Below the pieces are notes generated by a model. It worked only from the letters and a program-made list of their open reading frames with translations. It searched no databases and was not told the origin of the DNA. A stretch of DNA of 32,971 nt from a virus. Its lineage: Duplodnaviria > Heunggongvirae > Uroviricota > Caudoviricetes. The DNA is taken from IMG/VR virus record IMGVR_UViG_2541047885_000016, one strand, 5' to 3'. Every line of letters begins with the position of its first letter. Position 1 is the first letter of the stretch. The position numbers were made by a program, and so were the translations under genes. This document shows, piece after piece, positions 1 to 10,969 of this stretch.

Positions 1-1284
1 TTACAGACTTCTGGAAGGTTGCGCAGCTCTTACAACACGCGGTTGATCTTCCGCAGCGTCTTCCAGCGCACTTAAATCACGGTCTTTCACCTCTGGCATT
101 TTCAGCGCAGAGATTAAACCAATCACTGAATATGCCATGATCATAATGGCGATCGGATACCAGGATTCCGTCATGGTGCAGAAAATACCCGCCAGGATAG
201 GACCAAAACCGGAAGCGATAAGACCACCAATTTCTTTAGAAATAGCCATCCGGGTAAAGCGGTTTTTACAGCCGAACATTTCTGCCATGGTAATGTTTTC
301 CAGAGCAAATAATCCCAGCACCGCACAGTTATGAATCACAATCAGTGCAACCATAATGGTGCTCGGGGCATAGCTTTTATCTACAATGATAGAAAGCATT
401 GGCCATGCCAGCACAATCGCGGAGGTATTCATAATAATATACGGGATCCGGCGACCAATTTTATCGGATAACCAACCAAGGAACGGAATGGTCATAAAGC
501 CGAGAATCGAACTGATCATCAATGCATCTGTTGGAATTGCTTTGTTAAACAATAACGTCTGCACTAAATAGCCTGCAAGGAAAGTCTGAATTAACCCGGA
601 GTTACCCGCCTGACCAAAACGCAGCCCTGTTGCCAGCCAGAAGGATTTGCTCTGGAACATGCTACCAGCAGGTGCAGGTTTTGCTGTCGGTTGGTTACTG
701 TCGTTAACCTTCTCAAAGACCGGGCTTTCTTTCAGATTCATACGCAACCAGATAGCAAAGACCATCACGACAACGCTCGCCAGGAACGGTATACGCCATC
801 CCCACGCCAGCAGTTCCTCTTTACTGAGAATGAAGAACATAAAGGCCCAGATTGCCGTTGCGCTCAAGGTTCCGCAGTTAGTTCCCATAGCCACAAATGA
901 GGAGATAATTCCGCGCTTACCTTTTGGCGCATATTCCGCCAGCATCGTACCGGCACCGGAAATTTCCGCACCTGCACCCAACCCCTGAATAATACGCAAC
1001 GTCACCAGCAAGATGGGTGCAAAAACACCAATCTGTGCATAGGTCGGTAACACACCAATTAAGGTGGTACAGATCCCCATCATGGTGATGGTAATAAAGA
1101 GCACTTTTTTACGCCCTATTCTGTCGCCCATTTTGCCGAAAATAAATGCTCCGACAATACGCGCCACATAACCTGCACCGTAGGTTCCCATTGCCAGAAT
1201 TAACGCCATTGCCGTTGATGATTCAGGAAAAAATATTTCATGAAACACTAACGCTGCGCCGAGCGAATATAACTGGAAATCCAT
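1..1284 (-). CDS. ydfJ: MFS-superfamily metabolite:H+ symporter (ProP-like); host gene flanking the prophage
   Basis: 427-aa ORF from the track; many hydrophobic TM segments; MFS loop motif GKMGDRIGRKK between TM2 and TM3; stop at 1..3; in-frame stop immediately upstream of Met1. Symbol assigned from recalled Qin-locus gene order. Confidence 0.75.
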   Translation of the reverse strand: MDFQLYSLGAALVFHEIFFPESSTAMALILAMGTYGAGYVARIVGAFIFGKMGDRIGRKKVLFITITMMGICTTLIGVLPTYAQIGVFAPILLVTLRIIQGLGAGAEISGAGTMLAEYAPKGKRGIISSFVAMGTNCGTLSATAIWAFMFFILSKEELLAWGWRIPFLASVVVMVFAIWLRMNLKESPVFEKVNDSNQPTAKPAPAGSMFQSKSFWLATGLRFGQAGNSGLIQTFLAGYLVQTLLFNKAIPTDALMISSILGFMTIPFLGWLSDKIGRRIPYIIMNTSAIVLAWPMLSIIVDKSYAPSTIMVALIVIHNCAVLGLFALENITMAEMFGCKNRFTRMAISKEIGGLIASGFGPILAGIFCTMTESWYPIAIMIMAYSVIGLISALKMPEVKDRDLSALEDAAEDQPRVVRAAQPSRSL

Positions 1285-1887
1285 AATTCACAGGTGTTTT
1301 TTCCCATCCTGTGGTTCCCTTGGCGTTTTCTAGGTTTTTTCAGATAGTTGCATTTTTTAAAAAGCATCCTGAGTTCGATCTCAGTGTCTATCTGGGGCCT
1401 ATTTCTGTCCCATATATGCCCCAAAAAAACTCCCCAACAGATAAGTGGTTTTTTCATGGATTTATGCGTAAAATCAAGAACGGCTGGAAATCATTCAATA
1501 CACACACTATCGAAAAATTTACCAGCCAACCGCAGCACGTTCTTGCATAAGGCGTGTCTGCGGTTTTTCAACTATTCAGATACATCACTCCCATCACATT
1601 CATTCCTCCGCATCAAAGGCATATAGGCTATATCACCTTGATATTTTTCTTCTTCAGATAAAAACTGTTATCTATGTATACTTTTAAACCCAATCCGTGT
1701 AGAGTCTCTGCATAAGATAGTTTGCAGTTGCCGCTTCAGCTTGCGCCATAAACCGCCTGATTTTTGCTGCCACCTGTTAGCATTCCTGTATACCTGAAAC
1801 GACAATGTTTATCTACGAACTTTAAGAACACCCAAGATAAAAATCGTCAACTATATCATATATAACACATTACTAATTCGAGGCTAT

Positions 1888-2001
1888 ATGAACAGCATAC
1901 TGATAATCACTTCTCTCCTTATCATATTCAGCATTTTTAGTCATGCCCTAATAAAATTAGGGATTGGCATATCCAATAACCCAGACAAAACCGATGTATA
2001 A
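1888..2001 (+). CDS. candidate 37-aa single-helix membrane peptide ([37 protein letters not shown]) in the region upstream of ydfK
   Basis: Hand-translated; ATG at 1888 preceded by GAGG at 1880..1883; below the 60-aa cutoff of the ORF track; hydrophobic N-terminal helix. Confidence 0.3.
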
Positions 2002-2069
2002 GTCAACATATCCTGAATCAGACATACAATATCGCAATGAAAATCAATAATATTTTAAGGAATATCTTC

Positions 2070-2303
2070 ATGAAATCAAAAGACACCCTAAAGTGGTTCC
2101 CTGCGCAGCTTCCTGAAGTAAGAATTATCCTAGGGGATGCTGTAGTGGAAGTAGCAAAACAGGGAAGACCTATCAATACCAGAACATTGCTTGATTACAT
2201 TGAAGGAAACATAAAGAAAAAATCATGGCTGGATAACAAAGAATTATTACAAACAGCGATATCAGTTCTTAAAGACAACCAAAATTTAAATGGTAAAATG
2301 TAA
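2070..2303 (+). CDS. ydfK: small cold-shock-inducible prophage protein (YnaE/YdfK family)
   Basis: Track ORF 2037..2303; preferred start is the internal ATG at 2070 (AAGGAA 7 nt upstream), giving 77 aa MKSKDTLKWFPAQLPEV...; position next to pin and ydfJ matches recalled Qin gene order. Confidence 0.7.
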   Translation: MKSKDTLKWFPAQLPEVRIILGDAVVEVAKQGRPINTRTLLDYIEGNIKKKSWLDNKELLQTAISVLKDNQNLNGKM

Positions 2304-2618
2304 TATAATTAACTTACTTTTTTATCATTTTCCACTTTAACAACATTTTGCTCCACTTTTCCACGACCAAACAACTTGAAATCTGGTTAAAATAACACGC
2401 AACACTATTCTTCTTCCTTGAGTCCGCCTGGAACTCGAAAAACAAACCGAATTAAAGCCATTTTTCACAAAATCGATTTTGGGTCTCACCAAAATTACGG
2501 GGTTGCATACGCATTCGTTTATTTTCGAACGTGTACATACAAATATGCACAAAAATAATCAAAATTATTTTCTGAGATGCATTATGATATGAACACCAAT
2601 TTCGTATAGAGTCTCACT

Positions 2619-3209
2619 ATGTCTCGAATTTTTGCTTACTGTCGGATATCAACGCTGGATCAGACCACCGAAAATCAACGCCGGGAAATCGAAAGTGCAG
2701 GTTTTAAAATCAAACCTCAGCAAATAATCGAAGAACACATTAGCGGCTCAGCAGCAACCAGTGAGCGTCCTGGTTTTAACCGGTTGCTTGCTCGCCTGAA
2801 ATGTGGTGATCAATTGATTGTGACAAAATTGGATCGCCTTGGTTGTAATGCAATGGATATCAGGAAAACAGTGGAACAACTGACCGAAACAGGTATCAGA
2901 GTGCATTGCTTAGCATTGGGGGGCATTGACCTGACCAGTCCAACAGGAAAAATGATGATGCAAGTAATTTCAGCAGTCGCTGAATTTGAACGAGACCTTT
3001 TACTTGAACGCACTCATTCCGGGATAGTAAGAGCCCGGGGCGCAGGGAAACGTTTTGGTCGACCACCTGTGTTAAATGAAGAACAGAAACAGGTGGTATT
3101 CGAACGGATTAAGTCAGGTGTAAGTATAAGTGCCATTGCCCGGGAATTCAAAACCTCGCGGCAAACCATTTTAAGAGCCAAAGCAAAACTTCAGACACCT
3201 GACATATAA
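2619..3209 (+). CDS. pin: serine recombinase, Pin/Gin/Hin-family DNA invertase
   Basis: 196 aa; N-terminal resolvase catalytic motif YCRISTLDQ (active-site Ser10); C-terminal helix-turn-helix region ([19 protein letters not shown]); typical invertase length. Confidence 0.9.
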
Positions 3210-3436
3210 AAAATAATCTCGGTGTGAGATGCTTTACGTCTTCCAAGCCCCCTTCCTTGCCGTAAATGGAAAGATACATCTAATTATAGAATTTATATGT
3301 TTTACCCTACGGCAGTGCTGGCCATTCAATATCCTGTGCAGTTGACGTATCAACACGGTTCAGCAACACCCGATACTTTTTCCTGGCTTCCAGCAACGGG
3401 GTTTCTTCCTCCGTTGCATATACAGCTCACCTTTTT

Positions 3437-3730
3437 TCACCCACGATTAACCAACAGCCAGATCAGCAGACACGCCACCACCGGCACAGCAAAATCCATC
3501 AGGCTTGCCACATCCCAAACACGCGGATCAAAACCGCCCCACCACGGCATGTTAATCCGCTTGCCATGCCCGAACATTTCAATCCAGCGATATTCTGCCT
3601 GGGTGTGTTCACGCGCAATGAAGAACGTACAACCAGCTATCGCCCCATAAGCCCAGTTTCCGGTAAAAAGACCAACCAGTGTCTGCGCAGCCACAGCACA
3701 AAGCGCATGAAGAAAAGGTGTTATATCCAT
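3437..3730 (-). CDS. 97-aa hypothetical integral membrane protein, last gene of the tail-fibre operon
   Basis: Strong RBS (AAGGAGGAG a few nt upstream of ATG at 3730); hydrophobic segments at about residues 5-39 and 75-94 with a Trp-rich loop (MPWWGGFDPRVWDV); 10-nt gap to the upstream gene; no family recognised. Confidence 0.55.
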   Translation of the reverse strand: MDITPFLHALCAVAAQTLVGLFTGNWAYGAIAGCTFFIAREHTQAEYRWIEMFGHGKRINMPWWGGFDPRVWDVASLMDFAVPVVACLLIWLLVNRG

Positions 3731-3740
3731 TACTCCTCCT

Positions 3741-4445
3741 TTATCTAATATCGCTTCGGGAAGTTAATAACAACTTTAATTCTGACTCAAGTTCATCAAC
3801 TCTTTCAGTCAGTTTCTGGATATGGTGAATCAGTGGAACAACCAGACGTTCGTACATTACACCTTCGGCAACAAGGCCATTGCTGGAAATAGCTTCAGGA
3901 GCATCATCTTCGTTAGCTGGTCGCCAGTGTACAAACTGAGGAGCAATTTCTCCTACTTCCTCGGCAATCAATCCGTAGAATCCCCAGTCACGCCTGTCAT
4001 TTTCGCATTGCGACCTGTACCACACAGGGCGCATCCTGAAAATGAGATCGGCGTGCTCTGAATCTATTGTCTCTACTGAATGTTTATAGCGGATAGACGA
4101 TGTTGACCGCAGCACAGACGAAATTGCACGGTCAGGATTAAGATAAAGGTTTGCCGCCGCTGTAGTCGTGGCCAAATTCCATAAATAAAACGCTTCACGA
4201 CCTGTCAGTGGATAAAAATCTCCGCCATAACGACCACTTTCCAGATCGTTCACTTCCACTTTGTTTTTCAGCTTATTATCAACTTCAGTTTTTGTGTATC
4301 TGGAGCTGATATCCTGCTTTGCACTGGTCATCTCAGTCTGAAGCGTTGATACTTTTCTGCTAATTGATGAAATATCTTCCTTAGCTTTACTGACATCCCC
4401 CTTTAGCTTGGTGATATCTCCTGGAATTACTGTCGATGTAGCCAT
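3741..4445 (-). CDS. 234-aa tail-fibre-like protein: N-terminal coiled-coil segment plus C-terminal domain resembling the peptidase S74 intramolecular chaperone of tail fibres/spikes
   Basis: Heptad-like N-terminus (GDITKLKGDVSKAKEDISSISRKVSTLQTEM...); C-terminal pattern SSIRYKHS...GFYGLIAEEVGEIAPQFV...GLVAEGVMYERLVVPLIHHIQKLTERVDELESELK fits the S74 chaperone-domain pattern as I recall it; domain assignment from memory only. Confidence 0.55.
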   Translation of the reverse strand: MATSTVIPGDITKLKGDVSKAKEDISSISRKVSTLQTEMTSAKQDISSRYTKTEVDNKLKNKVEVNDLESGRYGGDFYPLTGREAFYLWNLATTTAAANLYLNPDRAISSVLRSTSSIRYKHSVETIDSEHADLIFRMRPVWYRSQCENDRRDWGFYGLIAEEVGEIAPQFVHWRPANEDDAPEAISSNGLVAEGVMYERLVVPLIHHIQKLTERVDELESELKLLLTSRSDIR

Positions 4446-4454
4446 TTTCCTGCC

Positions 4455-4736
4455 TCACATCCAGCCACGAAGTTGATGCTCAACAACAACCGCGTATTTA
4501 TCGAATATTGACGATTTTTTTGCATCATTAATGATGCGCACGTTTACAAAATATCCGTCTTCCTTAACACATACCGGCTCGCCATCTTCAGTAAGTTCTC
4601 CGGTTTCTTTGTACACGTTACCTATCACGTCAATAAGAATATCATCCTGCATCGACTCGTCATCATAATAGCCAGCACTCTTCATAAAGGCCGAAAAGTC
4701 GGCCTTGTCTGTGAATTTGATAATTAAATCTCGCAT
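4455..4736 (-). CDS. 93-aa acidic hypothetical protein translationally coupled to stf
   Basis: Start codon overlaps the stf stop (ATGA at 4736); acidic composition; no hydrophobic segments; no family recognised. Confidence 0.55.
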   Translation of the reverse strand: MRDLIIKFTDKADFSAFMKSAGYYDDESMQDDILIDVIGNVYKETGELTEDGEPVCVKEDGYFVNVRIINDAKKSSIFDKYAVVVEHQLRGWM

Positions 4737-7114
4737 TATATTATCTCTCCCATTTGCGCATCGGTTAATTCTTTATGCCATATTCTAAAATTCCTGATAT
4801 AACCAAATAAATGACGTAAGCCGGCTGTAGTCTGGCCTCCAATCCTTATACCTGTAGCACCACTAACACTCTTCCACGTTGTTGATGCTGGTGTTGATAA
4901 AACCCCATTGCAGCCAGCCTGAAACTTGCCGTCGCTTTTTATTCTATATACAGCGATAATCTTTCTTGGGTAATTTCCAGGTGGAAATGATATTGGATTA
5001 CCAAATTGAACATATGGAGTTCCTACACTACCTGCTGTATTTCTGAATGCAAAAACAAAAGCGTCGTCTTTTGTTTTAAATCCTGTTATATCATAAATTC
5101 TAGGCGCGGAATTTGGTGCTATAGACCAATTTTTATTCACTTCAACCATGCAGGTTAAAGGTTTGCTGGCCATGTTATTTTTACAAGGCAATGTAACAAT
5201 ATCGCTTGCTCGCGTTGATGCAACTGTATCGGAAATGATAAAAGATGATGCGCATGAGCCGCCTTCAAATTGTGGTGTCGTAACATCCAAACATTCCCCG
5301 CCCAAATAAGTTCCAGGTGAAACAGGTGGAGCAATTTGGATCTGAGAGCCAACCATATTATCAATAGCTTCAGATTGATATGTAACCTCGAAATAAATCC
5401 ATCCATTAGATTCTTTCTCCGCTCGGGCGGTTATTCTTGCAGCCCCTCCTCCCGTTTTCCTAATGGACATATCTGTTATATTAAGATATGCATCTGCCAG
5501 ATAAAAATATGCGGACCCGTCATATCTTTCAAATCTTATACGACATTGTATATTAGCACTATCGCTTTTTACACGACATGATGTTGTAACATACTTTTCA
5601 GTTCCAGTAACATCGACACCTCTTCCTCCTGAAACCGCAGCGATATTCATTGTCGTATTTGTCCCAATTTTTTCGTCCTTTATTTGAAACCGCCCATAAG
5701 TAAAGCCAAACTCATCAACACCACTTTCTGTTATAGTTACACTTGTTGTAGCTCCCCACTTAGATGGCGTAAGTGAATTAAGATGATAGTTGGTTCTTTG
5801 TCCTTCAATCAGCAAACCTTCTCGTTCAAATCGCGGTTCGTCAACTTCAGCAACGGTTAATACTCCTGATTTATTAATGTATGTTGCACCTGATGCGCGT
5901 TTGAAGCTAACAACCTTATCGGATGGCATTTTAATAACATCATCACCTACAGTTATTTGCTTATAACCAGGCGAAAAGCCAGCAAGCATATCCAGTGAAT
6001 CGTTAAACGGTATCCACACATCGGGAAGCGGCTGCAAAACTTGTTTATACGGCTCCGCAGCCTGGCTTGCATACTCTCTGGCTGCGTCTTCACTTGCTTT
6101 TGCAGCCGTCTGGCTTGCAGCGGATGCTTTCGCCGAGTTAGCCGCCGCAGTCTCGCTCGCCTTTGCGTTGGTTTCACTGGTTTTTGCAGCTTTTTGACTG
6201 TTGGCTGATGCAGTGGCAGAAGAAGCCGCCGCACTTGCAGAACCAGCTGCGGCACTCTCGCTTTGGGCCGCTGCATCCTGACTGTTTTTCGCCGCAGTTT
6301 CGCTGGCTTTGGCATTCGTTTCGCTGGTCTTCGCTGCCGTCTGGCTGGACTTTGCGTTAGTTTCACTCGTCTTCGCTGCTTTCTGACTGTTAGCCGCAGC
6401 AGTTGCTGATCCAGCTGCTGAAGTCGCAGAACCGGCTGCCGCGCTCTCGCTTTGGGCTGCTGCAACCTGGCTGTTTTTTGCCGCAGTTTCACTGGCTTTG
6501 GCATTCGTTTCGCTGGTCTTCGCTGCCGTCTGGCTGGACTTTGCGTTGGTTTCGCTCGTCTTTGCGGCTGTCTCGCTGTTTTTCGCGTTGGTTTCTGATT
6601 TTTTGGCTGCTGTCGCGGAGTTTGCCGATGCAGTCTGTGAGGTCGCTGCCGCCTGTGCGCTGTTAGCTGCATTCGTTTCTGAGGTTTTCGCCGCGTTCTT
6701 CGATGATGCCGCTGCAGTTTCGGATTTCTTTGCCGCCGCTGCGCTCTGAGAGGCGGCTTCGGCGTTGCGTGCCGCTTCTTCCACCATTTCCTCAAAACGG
6801 CGCAATGCCTCCGGCATGACATCATCTTCCGTCATGGCACCGAGAAAATCATTCAGCGTACCTGGTCTGGAACCTTCATAGACGGTAATGGTCCCGGCAT
6901 GTGAAGGCGGAAAACCTTCAACCAGCAGGGTGACGCTGTACTGGCCATACTCAACATCCATGCTGTAACGTCCGGCTTCATCCGGATTTTCAGAAGCCAC
7001 CGTGTTCACCAGTACCGTGGTGCTGTTACGCTTTGCCTTCAGTTGAATAGTGCAGTTCTGTATTGGTTTTCCCGCACCATCTTTCAGCACACCTGAGATT
7101 TTTACTGCTGCCAT
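4736..7114 (-). CDS. stf: side tail fibre protein Stf: lambda-like N-terminus and Ala/Ser/Thr-rich repetitive shaft, non-lambda C-terminal region
   Basis: N-terminus MAAVKISGVLKDGAGKPIQNCTIQLKAKRNSTT... matches lambda Stf as recalled; preferred start ATG at 7112..7114 (track extends to a GTG at 7120); GGAG RBS; C-terminal ~450 aa differ from lambda and end ...FGYIRNFRIWHKELTDAQMGEII. Confidence 0.9.
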   Translation of the reverse strand: MAAVKISGVLKDGAGKPIQNCTIQLKAKRNSTTVLVNTVASENPDEAGRYSMDVEYGQYSVTLLVEGFPPSHAGTITVYEGSRPGTLNDFLGAMTEDDVMPEALRRFEEMVEEAARNAEAASQSAAAAKKSETAAASSKNAAKTSETNAANSAQAAATSQTASANSATAAKKSETNAKNSETAAKTSETNAKSSQTAAKTSETNAKASETAAKNSQVAAAQSESAAAGSATSAAGSATAAANSQKAAKTSETNAKSSQTAAKTSETNAKASETAAKNSQDAAAQSESAAAGSASAAASSATASANSQKAAKTSETNAKASETAAANSAKASAASQTAAKASEDAAREYASQAAEPYKQVLQPLPDVWIPFNDSLDMLAGFSPGYKQITVGDDVIKMPSDKVVSFKRASGATYINKSGVLTVAEVDEPRFEREGLLIEGQRTNYHLNSLTPSKWGATTSVTITESGVDEFGFTYGRFQIKDEKIGTNTTMNIAAVSGGRGVDVTGTEKYVTTSCRVKSDSANIQCRIRFERYDGSAYFYLADAYLNITDMSIRKTGGGAARITARAEKESNGWIYFEVTYQSEAIDNMVGSQIQIAPPVSPGTYLGGECLDVTTPQFEGGSCASSFIISDTVASTRASDIVTLPCKNNMASKPLTCMVEVNKNWSIAPNSAPRIYDITGFKTKDDAFVFAFRNTAGSVGTPYVQFGNPISFPPGNYPRKIIAVYRIKSDGKFQAGCNGVLSTPASTTWKSVSGATGIRIGGQTTAGLRHLFGYIRNFRIWHKELTDAQMGEII
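6188..6565 (-). repeat. tandem in-frame duplication (2 x 189 bp, 63 codons) within the stf shaft region
   Basis: The DNA block GCCGCAGTTTCGCTGGCTTTGGCATTCGTTTCGCTGGTCTTCGCTGCCGTCTGGCTGGACTTTGCGTT occurs at about 6291 and again at about 6480 (189 bp apart); the protein repeats AKTSETNAKSSQTAAKTSETNAKASETAAKNSQ.AAAQSESAAAGS twice. Confidence 0.75.
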
Positions 7115-7124
7115 ATCCACTCCA

Positions 7125-7151
7125 CAAAAAAGCCCGCCTGAACCGGCGGGC
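7125..7151 (-). terminator. intrinsic terminator-like hairpin downstream of lom
   Basis: GC stem GCCCGCC/GGCGGGC (7132..7151) followed on the minus strand by a U6 run (7125..7130), between the lom stop and the stf start. Confidence 0.5.
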
Positions 7152-7178
7152 TGTCATAACACTGTGTTACCTGGCTAA

Positions 7179-7778
7179 TCAGAATTTATAACCGACACCC
7201 ACGATGAAACCGTCAGTGCGCCAGTCACCACTGCCGGAGCCTTCATAAGCAATATCAATGGCCACGGATTCGGTCGGGTTAAACTGCACGCCAGCTCCCC
7301 ACGCCAGAGACGTGTTGCTGTGGCGATCATCATCACTTCCGGTCAGCACATCGTGCGTTTTCCCCTTGTTGTCAGTTACGCGGAGATAATCCCCGGAGAA
7401 CGTCGAAACACGGCTGTAAGCCATACCTGCCATCGCATAAGCACTGAACCATTCATTCACGCGTACAGATGGCCCCGCCATCATGCTGAACCAGCGGTTA
7501 CGCACTGAATCTTCATGCCAGCGGGTATCGCTGTAATGCGTTTTTTGCTCATCTTTGGCATTGGCATAACTGAATGACGTCACCAGCCCCAGCGTGTCCG
7601 TAAATTCATAACGGTATTTCACGTTAATCCCGTTCAGATTATCGCTGCCGGGAACGTTCGTCGAGGCATGAAGATACCCCGCGCTCAGCGTGGACTGATG
7701 TTCAGATGCCCATGCAGGCGCACCGGATACGGCCAGACAAATGGCTGCGGACAAAATGGCGGCATAAAGTTTACGCAT
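7179..7778 (-). CDS. lom: outer membrane beta-barrel protein Lom (Ail/Lom family)
   Basis: 199 aa; signal peptide MRKLYAAILSAAICLAVSGAPAWA; C-terminus ...IAYEGSGSGDWRTDGFIVGVGYKF matches lambda Lom as recalled. Confidence 0.9.
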   Translation of the reverse strand: MRKLYAAILSAAICLAVSGAPAWASEHQSTLSAGYLHASTNVPGSDNLNGINVKYRYEFTDTLGLVTSFSYANAKDEQKTHYSDTRWHEDSVRNRWFSMMAGPSVRVNEWFSAYAMAGMAYSRVSTFSGDYLRVTDNKGKTHDVLTGSDDDRHSNTSLAWGAGVQFNPTESVAIDIAYEGSGSGDWRTDGFIVGVGYKF

Positions 7779-7847
7779 AATTACCTCTCGCTTTTCTGCA
7801 ATAAAAAAGGCACCATTTCTGGTGCCCTTATATGGGTTATAACAATT

Positions 7848-8168
7848 TCAACGAATACTGATGCCGGAAGCGGCTTTTTTGGTCACAATCACCGTACAGT
7901 CGGTGATATTACCTGCCCGCTGATTGCCTTTATGGAAAACCTTAAACTCCAGAGTGACGCTTCCCCTGCCACTCGGCATATCAATAACCGCACTGTAGCT
8001 ACCGGGAATGGCCCCTTTAGTTTCTCTGGATGCGATTAATACACCGTTGCCGGTGGATTTCCACCACTGGTAATGGTCGGGGCCGTCAGGCGTTTCAGGA
8101 ACACGTCGTTCATGAATATCTGATCGCCCTGACCAACAAACATCGGTTTTGTGTTGCCATTCGCAGGA
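7848..8168 (-). pseudogene. out-of-frame remnant of the J C-terminal receptor-binding region
   Basis: A frame +1 relative to J is open from 8168 to the stop at 7848..7850; its last ~60 codons (...GAIPGSYSAVIDMPSGRGSVTLEFKVFHKGNQRAGNITDCTVIVTKKAASGISIR) resemble the extreme C-terminus of lambda J as recalled (...IVDMPAGRGNVILTF...VMVIKKQALGISVV); the upstream part of that frame is junk-like. Confidence 0.55.
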
Positions 8169-10969
8169 TTAACCATCGCAATCCTGTCCGCCGCCAGCAG
8201 CACCTGACTCTGCATGCCGTCAGGGGTGTTCTCAATACCGGCACCAATACCCGCGATATAAAGGCGTCCGTCCTGCATCTGCTGCAGCTTCACAGCCCAC
8301 ATGCTGTTCAGGTTATTATTTGTATCAACCTGAACCTTCTGTATCTGCTGAATTGCCGCACTCTGGTCTTCCAGTTTCTTATTGACGGTCTGCGTGATTT
8401 CATTGCTGACATGCGTAATGGACGTCCTGATTTCAGCCAGGTCAGGCGCAAGCTGACCGTTATCAATCTGCGTCCACAGCTCCTGAGCCAGATGGGTTTT
8501 CCCTATCTCGCCTTTGAAAAAATCCAGATAACCGGATGCATCATCACTCGGCTGACCAACAGCCTCCACGAATGCCGATTTGCCGACGGTGTTCACACTG
8601 CGAACGTAAAAATAATAATCATGGCCCGGTTTGATATTGATACTGGCAGCTATCCAGTACAGCGCCGTACCAAGATAGCGGGCTGTGGTTTCAACCTGCC
8701 TGATATCCGCAATCCGCTTTTCCGAGAACCAGAACTCAAACTGTACCGTCGGATCATAAACGGCAAGATGCGGCGTTGCGGTTATCTGAAAATAGCCCGG
8801 CGTCAGCTCAATCCGCGACGGTGCTGCCGGTGCGGCAATCCGGAACGATACCGATGCCGGATCGCCCTGCTGCCCCCAGGCATTTGCCGCCCGGACTGTC
8901 AGCCTGTAGTTTCCCAGCGCCAGTTGCGTGAAGCGGTATGTGGTTTCCGTCGTCCGGGCCGTGCTGACCAGCCGCTCACTGCCGTCGTCTGCTGCCACAG
9001 TCAGGCGAAGCATAAAGCTCACACCCTTCACCACCTTCGGCGTGTCCCATCGCGCCAGCACCTGATATTCCCCGCTGTCTGCAGTGACTTCGGCGGTCAG
9101 ATGCTGCACTGCTGGCGGCGTGACACCATTCACCGTGCCGCTCTGGTCACCGTCAAAGTGCGCCCCGTTATCCACGATGGCCTCTTTCTCCGGCACATGC
9201 TGCACGGCAGTGATGGCATACGTGCCGTCGTCGTTCTCACGGATACTCACGCAGCGGAACAGGCGCTGGCGCAGCGTCGGCAGCTTAAGCCCCCACACGC
9301 TGTATTCAGCAACACCGTCAGGAACCCGGCTCACTTTTACCTTCACGCCGTCGGTGACGGACTGAACCTCCACGCTGACCGGACTCCCCTGCCCGTCAAC
9401 CAGGCTTATCAGCGTGGTGCCGGAGGCTGGCAGCGTGATTTCACGGTCGAGCGTCAGTGTCCGCGTCTGGCTGTTCACCGCCAGCACGCGCCCACCGGTG
9501 CTGATGCCCGCATAGTCATCATCGCAGATTTCAATGACATCGCCCGGTACATGGCGAAGCCCTTCGGCACCCACGCTGAAGTCCACGGTCTGCGTTTCCA
9601 GCAGTTCTGTTTTAATCAGCCACAGCCCGGCTCGGTGCGCCTGCCCCCGACTGGTACAGCCAAACGCATCCATCTTCGTGACGTTACGACCGTAACGGGC
9701 AATGGCCTGCGTGTCCTCCACAAGCTCTGTCGCCGTCTCCCAGCCGTTATCCGGGTCAATCCAGTTCACCTCAACGGCATTATGGCGGTCCTTGAGGGCG
9801 CTGAAGCTGTAGCGGAACGGCGCGCCATCATCCGGCATCACCACATTACTGCGGTTATAGGTCCACACCTTATCCGACGGCCGGTCCTGCACGAACGTCA
9901 GCGTCTGCCCGTTCCATACCGGCATACAGCGCATCGCCGAGCAGAAATCACTGAGCACATCCCACGCCTTGCGCTGTGTGGTCAGGTACGCATTACAGGT
10001 GATGCGCGGCTCCGTGCCGCCAAAGCCGTCCGGCACTGACTGGTCGCAGTACTGGCCGATGACATACAGCGCCCATTTGTCCACATCCGCCGCACCAAGA
10101 CGTTTCCCCATGCCGTAGCGTGGATGGGTCAGCATATCCCACAGACACCAGGCCATGTTATTGCTGTATGCTGGCTTAAACGTTCCGTCCCAGATACCGC
10201 TGTATTGCCGCGTCTGCGGGTTATAGTTCGACGGCACCTGCAGAATGCGCCCGCGAAGATGATAATTACGGCTCACCTGCTGGCTGCCGAACTGCTCCGA
10301 GTCCACCTGCACGCCGACCAGTGCCGTGTTCGGGTAGCACTGTTTCACATCGATGATTTCTGTGTATGACGACCAGAGCGTTTTGTTCTGCAGCTGGTCT
10401 GTGGTGCTGTCCGGCGTCATCCTGCGCATCCGGATATTAAACGGGCGCGGCGGCAGGTTATCCACCACCACCGAGGCCAGATACTGCGACGTGGTTTTGC
10501 CCTTAATGGTGATGTCTTTTTCCGTCACCCAGCCACCGTTACGCTGTATCTGAACCAGCAGACGGACTTCCGACGGATTCCTGTCACCCTTTGAGGTGGT
10601 TTCCACCAGTGCCTGCACACCGAAGGTAAAGCGCAGACGGTCGATGTTTGCAGACGTGATGGTCCGGGTAATCGGCGTGTCGTACTTCACTTCCGTACCC
10701 AGCACCGTCTCGGAGCCGGAGGATTCAAACCCCTCCGGCGGTGTCTGCTCCTGCTCACCTGCCCGGAACACCACCGTGACGCCGGAGATATTGGTATTCC
10801 CCTCACTGTCCAGCACTGGCGTACTGTTCAGCAGCACACTTTTTAATCCGTCCACCGGACCTTCAATCGGCCCTTCACTGATGGCGTCTATCACGCTCAG
10901 CATCTGGGATGATTTCAGGTTGTCCTTCGCTTCGCGCGGGGTATGCCCCTTACTGCTGCCTTTACCCAT
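8036..10969 (-). CDS. J: tail tip host-specificity protein J, C-terminally truncated
   Basis: 976-aa ORF collinear with lambda J from [20 protein letters not shown]... to ...[23 protein letters not shown], then 3 codons and a stop; lambda J is 1132 aa from memory. Confidence 0.9.

Follow-up and report, generated by a model that had tools for sequence, protein, structure and literature searches.

The window analysed in the present study is a stretch of 32,971 nucleotides (nt) from a virus of the Caudoviricetes (IMG/VR record IMGVR_UViG_2541047885_000016). It carries a lambdoid prophage at the Qin locus, with ydfJ', ynfT/ydfK, pinQ, a group of tail fibre genes, lom, J and tail and head genes. 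The fibre genes, located between pinQ and lom, encode a side tail fibre (Stf) and three smaller proteins of 93, 234 and 97 amino acids (aa), hereafter referred to as p93, p234 and p97, and are the subject of this report.

Gene organisation of the fibre locus

Four open reading frames (ORFs) are present on the minus strand, encoding Stf (4736-7114), p93 (4455-4736), p234 (3741-4445) and p97 (3437-3730). The stop codon of stf overlaps the start codon of the p93 gene in the sequence TAATG and the remaining intergenic gaps measure 9-10 nt, in agreement with the tight packing of four ORFs described in the original prediction, which had been made from the sequence alone. All four proteins have full-length matches to PHROG families. 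The ratios of nonsynonymous to synonymous substitution rates (dN/dS), obtained by comparison with diverged copies, are 0.34-0.45 for p93 and 0.20-0.23 for p234; for p97, one comparison gave 0.19 and another, which involved few substitutions, approximately 1.0. In view of the dN/dS values and the full-length PHROG matches, the four ORFs are real genes and not chance ORFs.

The side tail fibre

The stf gene (4736..7114, minus strand) encodes 792 aa when read from the ATG at 7114, its ORF extending to a GTG at 7120; the product matches phrog_1419 over its full length and is represented by a RefSeq protein in Escherichia coli ATCC 8739. Its N-terminal tail-attachment domain (6719..7108, minus strand) is of the lambda type, as judged by the matches to PF08400 (E=7e-67) and to the structure 9e7m (E=7e-49), which is the solved N-terminus of lambda Stf. 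An Ala/Ser/Thr-rich shaft built on 21-nt-based repeats (6065..6784, minus strand; repeat families D1-D3) has a guanine-cytosine (GC) content of about 0.56, and residues 5-285 of Stf are 61% identical to lambda orf-401. The lambda-like N-terminus and shaft proposed earlier for Stf are thus confirmed by the domain, the structural and the sequence matches.

The shaft holds a 189-nt tandem duplication (6143-6331 and 6332-6520), the two copies of which are 83% identical and are built on the 21-nt repeats. Shaft length differs among the related loci, with Stf measuring 733-812 aa. In E. coli B REL606, stf is split by RefSeq into several short coding sequences and a pseudogene; this genome nonetheless has a continuous stf ORF of 794 codons that is 99% identical to the window Stf, and the split is probably an annotation artefact arising from the repeat-rich shaft.

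The distal region of Stf (residues 351-792; 4739..6064, minus strand), referred to here as Stf-C, constitutes the left-hand part of the imported cassette described below. It lacks similarity to lambda orf-314, which corresponds to the distal half of the lambda fibre, which bears out the claim that some 440 aa at this end are unrelated to lambda and, with it, the reading of the fibre as mosaic; it also lacks similarity to the distal part of the 986-aa Stf encoded by the allelic locus of strain 07-4299. The lateral fibres of T1-like, T5-like, rV5-like and Dhillonvirus phages have C-termini with 37-76% identity to Stf-C, which also occurs fused to a P2-type fibre N-terminus (P0146, P0150). Pfam detected no S74 domain in the window Stf.

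An AlphaFold model of the Stf-C monomer, built from 33 homologues, contains two beta-sandwich domains with pLDDT values (from the predicted local distance difference test) of about 85-90 and about 75. The first of these (5207..5812, minus strand) resembles the GTA head-spike-fibre domain, NCBIfam NF048003 matching residues 437-638 in the numbering from the GTG start (49.6 bits against a cut-off of 36). The second (4775..5197, minus strand) is LamG/ConA-like and would have a lectin-type fold; Pfam Laminin_G_3 matches the last 172 residues of Stf weakly (E=0.0013; 19.4 bits against a cut-off of 27.6), and similarity of the C-terminus to the ConA-like/LamG beta-sandwich fold was observed. The distal end of Stf is therefore predicted to consist of two ConA/LamG-like beta-sandwich domains. 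The original prediction, which had called the ending of Stf loosely lectin-like, holds at the level of the predicted fold, sugar binding by the lectin-type domains being deduced from that fold.

The small acidic protein p93

The gene for p93 (4455..4736, minus strand; phrog_1361) is translationally coupled to stf through the TAATG overlap, and its product contains 19 Asp and Glu residues against 11 Lys and Arg residues, so that both its acidic character and its coupling are as originally described. No relatives of p93 were found in Pfam, NCBIfam, PADLOC or PDB. Of the 120 relatives listed in a search with a profile of distant homologues, none fell under 46% identity, and hence the alignment available for structural modelling is shallow; the resulting model (pLDDT 76) has a beta-alpha-alpha-beta-beta topology. 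The coupling by a 1-nt overlap is common to stf/p93 and to lambda orf-314/tfa, and no tfa annotation is present in those T1-, T5- and rV5-like loci with p93 that were inspected. In Lambda_2G7a, PhiR41_1 and CarlMeissner, p93 is present without a second fibre; since p93 is kept where the second fibre is missing, its gene goes with Stf-C rather than with the second fibre.

The probable second fibre p234

The p234 gene (3741..4445, minus strand) encodes a protein with a putative docking motif (aa 1-15), a coiled repeat-like shaft (aa ~17-68), a tip (aa 69-115) and an S74 intramolecular chaperone domain (aa 116-234; 3744..4100, minus strand). Peptidase_S74 (PF13884) matches residues 116-172 with 27.5 bits against a cut-off of 22. 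The Ser-x4-Lys arrangement read from the sequence at the start of the domain provides a predicted Ser116/Lys121 dyad, the spacing of which we take to be that of the catalytic dyad in chaperones of the endosialidase K1F type. Self-cleavage is predicted between Thr115 and Ser116, and the mature p234 would accordingly comprise residues 1-115.

The first ~15 residues of p234 read MATSTVIPGDITKLK. The motif (T)xIPxDITKLK opens several downstream proteins with otherwise unrelated middles, including a 343/346-aa protein in HannyBb and many prophages, a 226-aa protein in tonn, proteins of 573/574 aa in T5_ev219 and IrisVonRoten and a 558-aa protein in AKFV33, and every motif-bearing downstream protein that was scanned carries a C-terminal Peptidase_S74. 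The tonn protein, from a virulent T1-like phage, shares 57% identity with p234 along its entire length, and the resemblance between p234 and the 343-aa allele is confined to the first 32 aa and the S74 region. Residues 16-498 of AKFV33 orf135 match residues 528-1006 of DT57C LtfA (E=1e-128), and no region of p234 matches the body common to these two proteins. The same receptor-binding body is thus found fused in cis (LtfA) or as a separate protein with the N-terminal peptide (AKFV33), as is expected for a docking tag. In p234 itself, a resemblance to the C-terminus of LtfA was observed (8hqz, E=3e-6), and its shaft is like the 19-aa repeats of LtfA. The earlier assignment of an S74 domain to the 234-aa protein is therefore supported by the Pfam match, though it was incomplete, as p234 is better read from its sequence as a separate, short second fibre than as merely a chaperone-domain protein.

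The membrane protein p97

The last gene of the operon encodes p97 (3437..3730, minus strand; phrog_1443), a small membrane protein. Its hydropathy profile places hydrophobic segments at both ends (approximately residues 1-40 and 73-97), which upholds its initial description as a 97-aa membrane protein; the strongly conserved motif GRExxQAEYRWI...NMPWWGGxDPRxW lies between the two segments. The family comprises 330 cluster representatives at E<=0.001; no matches were found in Pfam, NCBIfam, PADLOC or PDB, and the only name available from the sources is 'Ybl63'. Genes of the p97 family are the terminal genes behind receptor-binding genes in lambda-like phages, phage 21, JEP4, phiHAP-1 and PhiR41_1. 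They were not found in the inspected loci of virulent T1-, T5- and rV5-like phages that carry Stf-C and p93.

Genes of this family terminate receptor-binding operons chiefly in temperate phages, and their surroundings vary among unrelated ones. In the P22-like JEP4, the gene follows the tailspike gene and precedes int; in the P2/VP882-like Halomonas phage phiHAP-1, it follows a tail fibre assembly gene; and in the phage-plasmid PhiR41_1, it follows Stf/p93. Genes of the p97 family often overlap the preceding tailspike, tfa or fibre gene by 4 nt.

Junctions and origin of the cassette

A start-less relic of the 3' end of tfa, comprising approximately the last 37 codons (3307..3418, minus strand), lies 18 nt past the p97 stop codon. 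Comparison of its translation revealed a close match to the C-terminus of lambda Tfa, and in RefSeq it is entered as a partial 'tail fiber assembly protein'. An intact tfa is missing. The absence of a functional tfa claimed in the original prediction is therefore substantiated; the relic itself, which marks the recombination junction, had been missed.

E. coli K-12 Qin shares the relic side: the window is essentially identical to it over a stretch that starts where pinQ ends and takes in the final ~112 nt of tfaQ, and at the right junction (3418/3419) the similarity breaks off abruptly, the sequences beyond being unrelated. The left junction lies at about 6050-6070, and the homology of the protein to non-lambdoid fibres starts at about Stf residue 351 (~6064). 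At this junction the GC content declines from 0.56 to 0.39-0.47, and it remains low until about 3437, with values of 0.39-0.40 in Stf-C. The same locus in strain 07-4299 (NZ_CP027462.1, 2164500-2176500) carries an intact J, lom, a lambda-type Stf of 986 aa, a full tfaQ and pinQ, and its Stf has only the N-terminus and the shaft in common with the window Stf. Two alternative fibre cassettes, one of the window type and one of the 07-4299 type, thus occur between identical flanks at the Qin locus. The junctions, the 07-4299 allele and the drop in GC content together lead to the conclusion that a low-GC cassette of ~2.6 kb (~3419-6060) has taken the place of stf's lambda-type distal half and of four-fifths of tfa. 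Recombination of lambda with the stf/tfa region of Qin has been described previously (PMC3945230).

Distribution of the cassette

The same four genes were observed in the isolated phages IdasGreatGrand, PhiR49_1 and HannyBb, and the four-gene set is also present in most of the 80 IMG/VR loci recovered with p93. Searches of phage records with tblastn identified Stf-C in 218 records and p93 in 181, with a nearly identical breakdown by genus. The Stf-C/p93 pair occurs in tonn (T1-like), in T5_ev219, IrisVonRoten and AKFV33 (T5-like), in CarlMeissner (rV5-like), in the phage-plasmid PhiR41_1 and in phage 21; further carriers were found among the lambda-like phages and Dhillonvirus.

The association of the genes was examined in 80 IMG/VR loci chosen on Stf-C alone, 79 of which could be evaluated, the remaining one being a contig end. 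A p93 homologue begins no more than 60 nt from the Stf stop codon in all 79; the next protein opens with the motif IPxDI..LK in 65 of the 79 loci, and five proceed straight to p97. The genes downstream of stf had been regarded as unusual, a view that does not hold, as E. coli contigs carrying the set number in the thousands and viable phages have it too. The region is a common, horizontally exchanged side-tail-fibre cassette and an instance of ordinary phage mosaicism; the module it carries is a common two-part lateral-fibre cassette that has partly been described already and that includes two abundant small proteins without an assigned function.

Relationship to known fibre systems

One of the closest known counterparts is the fibre of the T5-like phage IrisVonRoten (Bas32). 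The C-terminus of its Gp22 is 76% identical to residues 360-792 of the window Stf; Gp23, a 92-aa homologue of p93, overlaps the Gp22 stop codon; and Gp24, which opens with MVTKTVIPTDITKLK, has an S74 domain at its end. Gp24 attaches to Gp22 according to AlphaFold-Multimer models, and the end of Gp22 is described by the BASEL authors as a galectin-like domain with a possible role as an additional receptor-binding domain (PMC11990801). The two systems differ in the N-terminal anchor, which is of the T5 type in IrisVonRoten and of the lambda type in the window, and in the second fibre, Gp24 being a T-shaped protein of 574 aa whose two receptor-binding domains are Gp12-like and T5-like, and its counterpart p234 being limited to a short shaft and a small tip. 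IrisVonRoten also lacks p97, and its 92-aa protein is assigned no role in the published description (PMC11990801). Judging from the sequences, the p234/Stf arrangement matches the Gp22/Gp24 two-part fibre, the attachment of p234 to Stf being a prediction.

In the LtfA/LtfB system of DT57C, which determines O-antigen specificity (Golomidova 2016, PMC4728585; Ayala 2023, PMC10713586), a second fibre is likewise carried non-covalently by the first and self-cleaving S74 domains are present (PMC4728585, PMC10713586). The S74 domain and the repeat-like shaft of p234 resemble those of LtfA, which, unlike Stf, carries an S74 domain of its own. The docking elements were compared using the 45-aa N-terminal sequence of LtfB and the 223-471 region of LtfA. 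The cassette does not belong to the LtfA/LtfB docking type, as the LtfB N-terminus lacks IPxDITKLK and similarity between Stf-C and LtfA is absent. In DT57C, ltfA and ltfB are not separated by a small gene resembling that of p93.

Stf and the lambda Stf/Tfa pair have in common the N-terminal attachment domain (~87% identical), the Ala-rich shaft, the position after lom and an accessory gene translationally coupled to the stf stop codon; they differ in that the distal half is unrelated, tfa is reduced here to the 37-codon relic, and p234 and p97 are extra. Phage 21 (OL657228) has a Stf-C that is 48% identical, followed by a small hypothetical gene and by a 94%-identical p97 listed as 'putative membrane protein'; it differs in that a second fibre gene is apparently missing in between, as judged from hit tables. 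The S74 domains of T5 pb1 and of the K1F endosialidase resemble that of p234 in matching PF13884 above the cut-off, in carrying Ser-x4-Lys at the start and in standing C-terminal to a trimeric tip; the portion of p234 to be folded comprises only ~115 residues, and its cleavage is predicted.

Cor (phi80/N15/T1) and Llp (T5) are encoded by receptor-masking or exclusion genes located after tail fibre genes. The p97 gene likewise specifies a small envelope protein beside receptor-binding genes, and a comparable role for p97 would be suggested by analogy; p97 has no relationship in sequence or fold to Cor or Llp and is a polytopic membrane protein, not a lipoprotein.

Proposed functioning of the cassette and alternative explanations

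The observations can be combined in the following account. The lambda-type N-terminus would anchor Stf at the tail tip, and its two lectin-type beta-sandwich domains may bind a surface glycan, probably O-antigen or another sugar linked to lipopolysaccharide. The p93 protein, which has the position and coupling of tfa and is the only accessory gene product always present, would assemble the distal region of Stf and possibly remain bound to it. A short trimeric second fibre would be formed by p234, folded by its own S74 chaperone, which would be removed at Ser116, and docked through the N-terminal IPxDITKLK onto Stf-C, so that a two-part or branched fibre such as that of Gp22/Gp24 would result. 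Finally, p97 would be made along with the fibre proteins, enter the inner membrane and mask or alter the receptor, leading to superinfection exclusion or keeping the progeny off debris. The cassette replacement and the two-part architecture of the fibre are regarded as highly probable, and the favoured account of the architecture as a whole as likely.

Several points weigh against parts of this account. The AlphaFold model of Stf-C, a monomer, is only moderate (mean pLDDT 66), with values below 50 for residues 351-443, although the first ~90 residues of Stf-C are plausibly left unmodelled because they are trimeric in nature. Lectin-type beta-sandwiches often fold unaided, and a chaperone may be unneeded. 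With about 45 residues per chain from the shaft to the cleavage site, the tip of p234 is small for one that binds a receptor. The searchable literature yielded neither virion proteomics nor genetics on p93, p234 or p97, and the small genes are unmentioned in the preprint on lambda-P2 STF engineering and in the Hf4s preprint. The p97 family also has weak matches in Aeromonas and Cobetia phages that are large and probably virulent, and receptor masking or exclusion by p97, favoured because of the position of its gene, is a doubtful guess that forms the weakest part of the account. Finally, J is truncated here, so that no function in this host can be assumed.

That p93 is a dedicated assembly partner of Stf-C standing in for Tfa is suggested by its constant pairing with Stf-C, by the overlap coupling and by the lack of an annotated tfa and of an S74 domain in Stf, and is held tentatively, with slightly less than even confidence. 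Neither a canonical Tfa homologue nor a match of the distal region of Stf to a fibre domain with a known dedicated chaperone, either of which would have spoken against the original prediction, was found. The main rival of the assembly role is one of p93 as a stoichiometric structural adaptor, in the manner of T4 gp35, that caps the distal domains of Stf and provides a hinge, or a socket into which the second fibre's N-terminal peptide fits. Such a role would agree with the location of p93 between the two fibre genes in every locus that has both, with the label 'tail fiber protein' given to the IrisVonRoten homologue by the BASEL annotators, and with a compact alpha/beta fold in the model (pLDDT about 80) and purifying selection. 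A pure socket role leaves the invariance of p93 unexplained, however, as p93 is retained without a second fibre in Lambda_2G7a, PhiR41_1, CarlMeissner and phage 21; no structural or proteomic support was found either way, and the adaptor role is considered somewhat unlikely. A bolder combination is possible though not expected, in which p93 represents a new assembly or adaptor class unrelated to Tfa, gp38/gp57A and the S74 chaperones, and p97 a widespread family of small membrane proteins, translated together with receptor-binding genes chiefly in temperate phages, that mask or alter the cognate receptor; p93 may on this reading be the obligate partner of a lectin-type distal module that moves between siphoviruses and myoviruses, both temperate and virulent. 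For p97, action in fibre export or assembly or in lysis, instead of receptor masking or exclusion, would be compatible with its translational coupling to late structural genes. A promoter-like site belonging to the p97 gene itself was not seen on the minus strand near 3730-3800, and owing to this and to the coupling, p97 is probably made late and not from the prophage. To our knowledge, however, tail fibres need no membrane factor and are assembled in the cytoplasm; p97 is absent from the inspected virulent phages that use the Stf-C/p93 pair and its gene lies far from the lysis genes, making such a role unlikely.

The remaining alternatives concern p234 and the origin of the arrangement. As p234 matches the last ~240 positions of the 1385-position profile phrog_3299, and is far shorter than the allelic second fibres of 346 aa and 574 aa, whose receptor-binding body it lacks, it might be a decayed and functionless remnant of the C-terminal end of a formerly long fibre. 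It nevertheless has its own start codon and ribosome-binding site, keeps the N-terminal motif of the full-size second fibres and an intact Ser-x4-Lys dyad, and shows a dN/dS of 0.20-0.23; its length (226-234 aa) is kept in most of the lambdoid loci sampled, it is present in viable phages, and the 57%-identical tonn homologue in a virulent T1-like phage is of full length. Decay is thus very unlikely, and p234 continues to be read as a short second fibre. The serine invertase gene pinQ (2619-3209, plus strand; PF00239, E=2.5e-36), situated on the opposite strand 98 nt beyond the tfa relic, raises the alternative of an invertible host-range switch driven by Pin, like the G segment of Mu, the C segment of P1 and the P segment of e14. 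Inverted repeats longer than 21 nt were not found, with none bracketing the fibre genes; all four genes are read in one direction, with no oppositely oriented set of alternative fibre ends, and the orientation is identical in every related locus inspected. Inversion was therefore rejected as extremely improbable.

The finding is an ordinary one for genome annotation. Side tail fibres mediate the first step of host recognition and are deliberately swapped in lambda-derived delivery particles. The distal module is always accompanied by its 93-aa partner and usually by a dockable second fibre with its own chaperone, which indicates the genes to be moved together. The presence of the cassette in temperate lambdoid as well as virulent T1-, T5- and rV5-like phages provides another clear example of the exchange of fibre modules across this divide. 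The abundance of p93 and p97 in E. coli genomes, together with their lack of an assigned function, makes them cheap and well-defined experimental targets.

Prophage context

The region 3200-7200 of the window is 99.1-99.3% identical to the corresponding regions of E. coli ATCC 8739 and E. coli B REL606. It is matched over at least 80% of the query in 71 of 5,426 complete genomes, with partial matches in almost all. At one end of the window lies ydfJ' (1-1284, minus strand), an N-terminally truncated copy that is typical of the Qin insertion site and is annotated by RefSeq as partial in related genomes. The lom gene (7179-7778) is located between J and stf, and the genes beyond J are lambda-like tail and head genes.

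A deletion of ~360 nt with a frameshift, following the sequence ...TSGGNPPA, has removed most of the C-terminal receptor-binding domain of J, a defect of the prophage that the original prediction had overlooked; in the allelic prophage of strain 07-4299, J is intact and measures 1165 aa. The prophage is probably defective and unable to form infectious particles, and because J is broken the fibre module probably serves no infection here. In this genome, the module is best seen as a recombination reservoir that can be donated to infecting lambdoid phages.

The truncated J measures 977 aa (8036-10969, minus strand), and its last ~55 codons survive out of frame in the region 7779-8100. A strong terminator-like hairpin (7131-7152, minus strand) with eight base pairs, seven of them G-C, and a T run occupies the gap that separates lom from stf, immediately upstream of the fibre operon.

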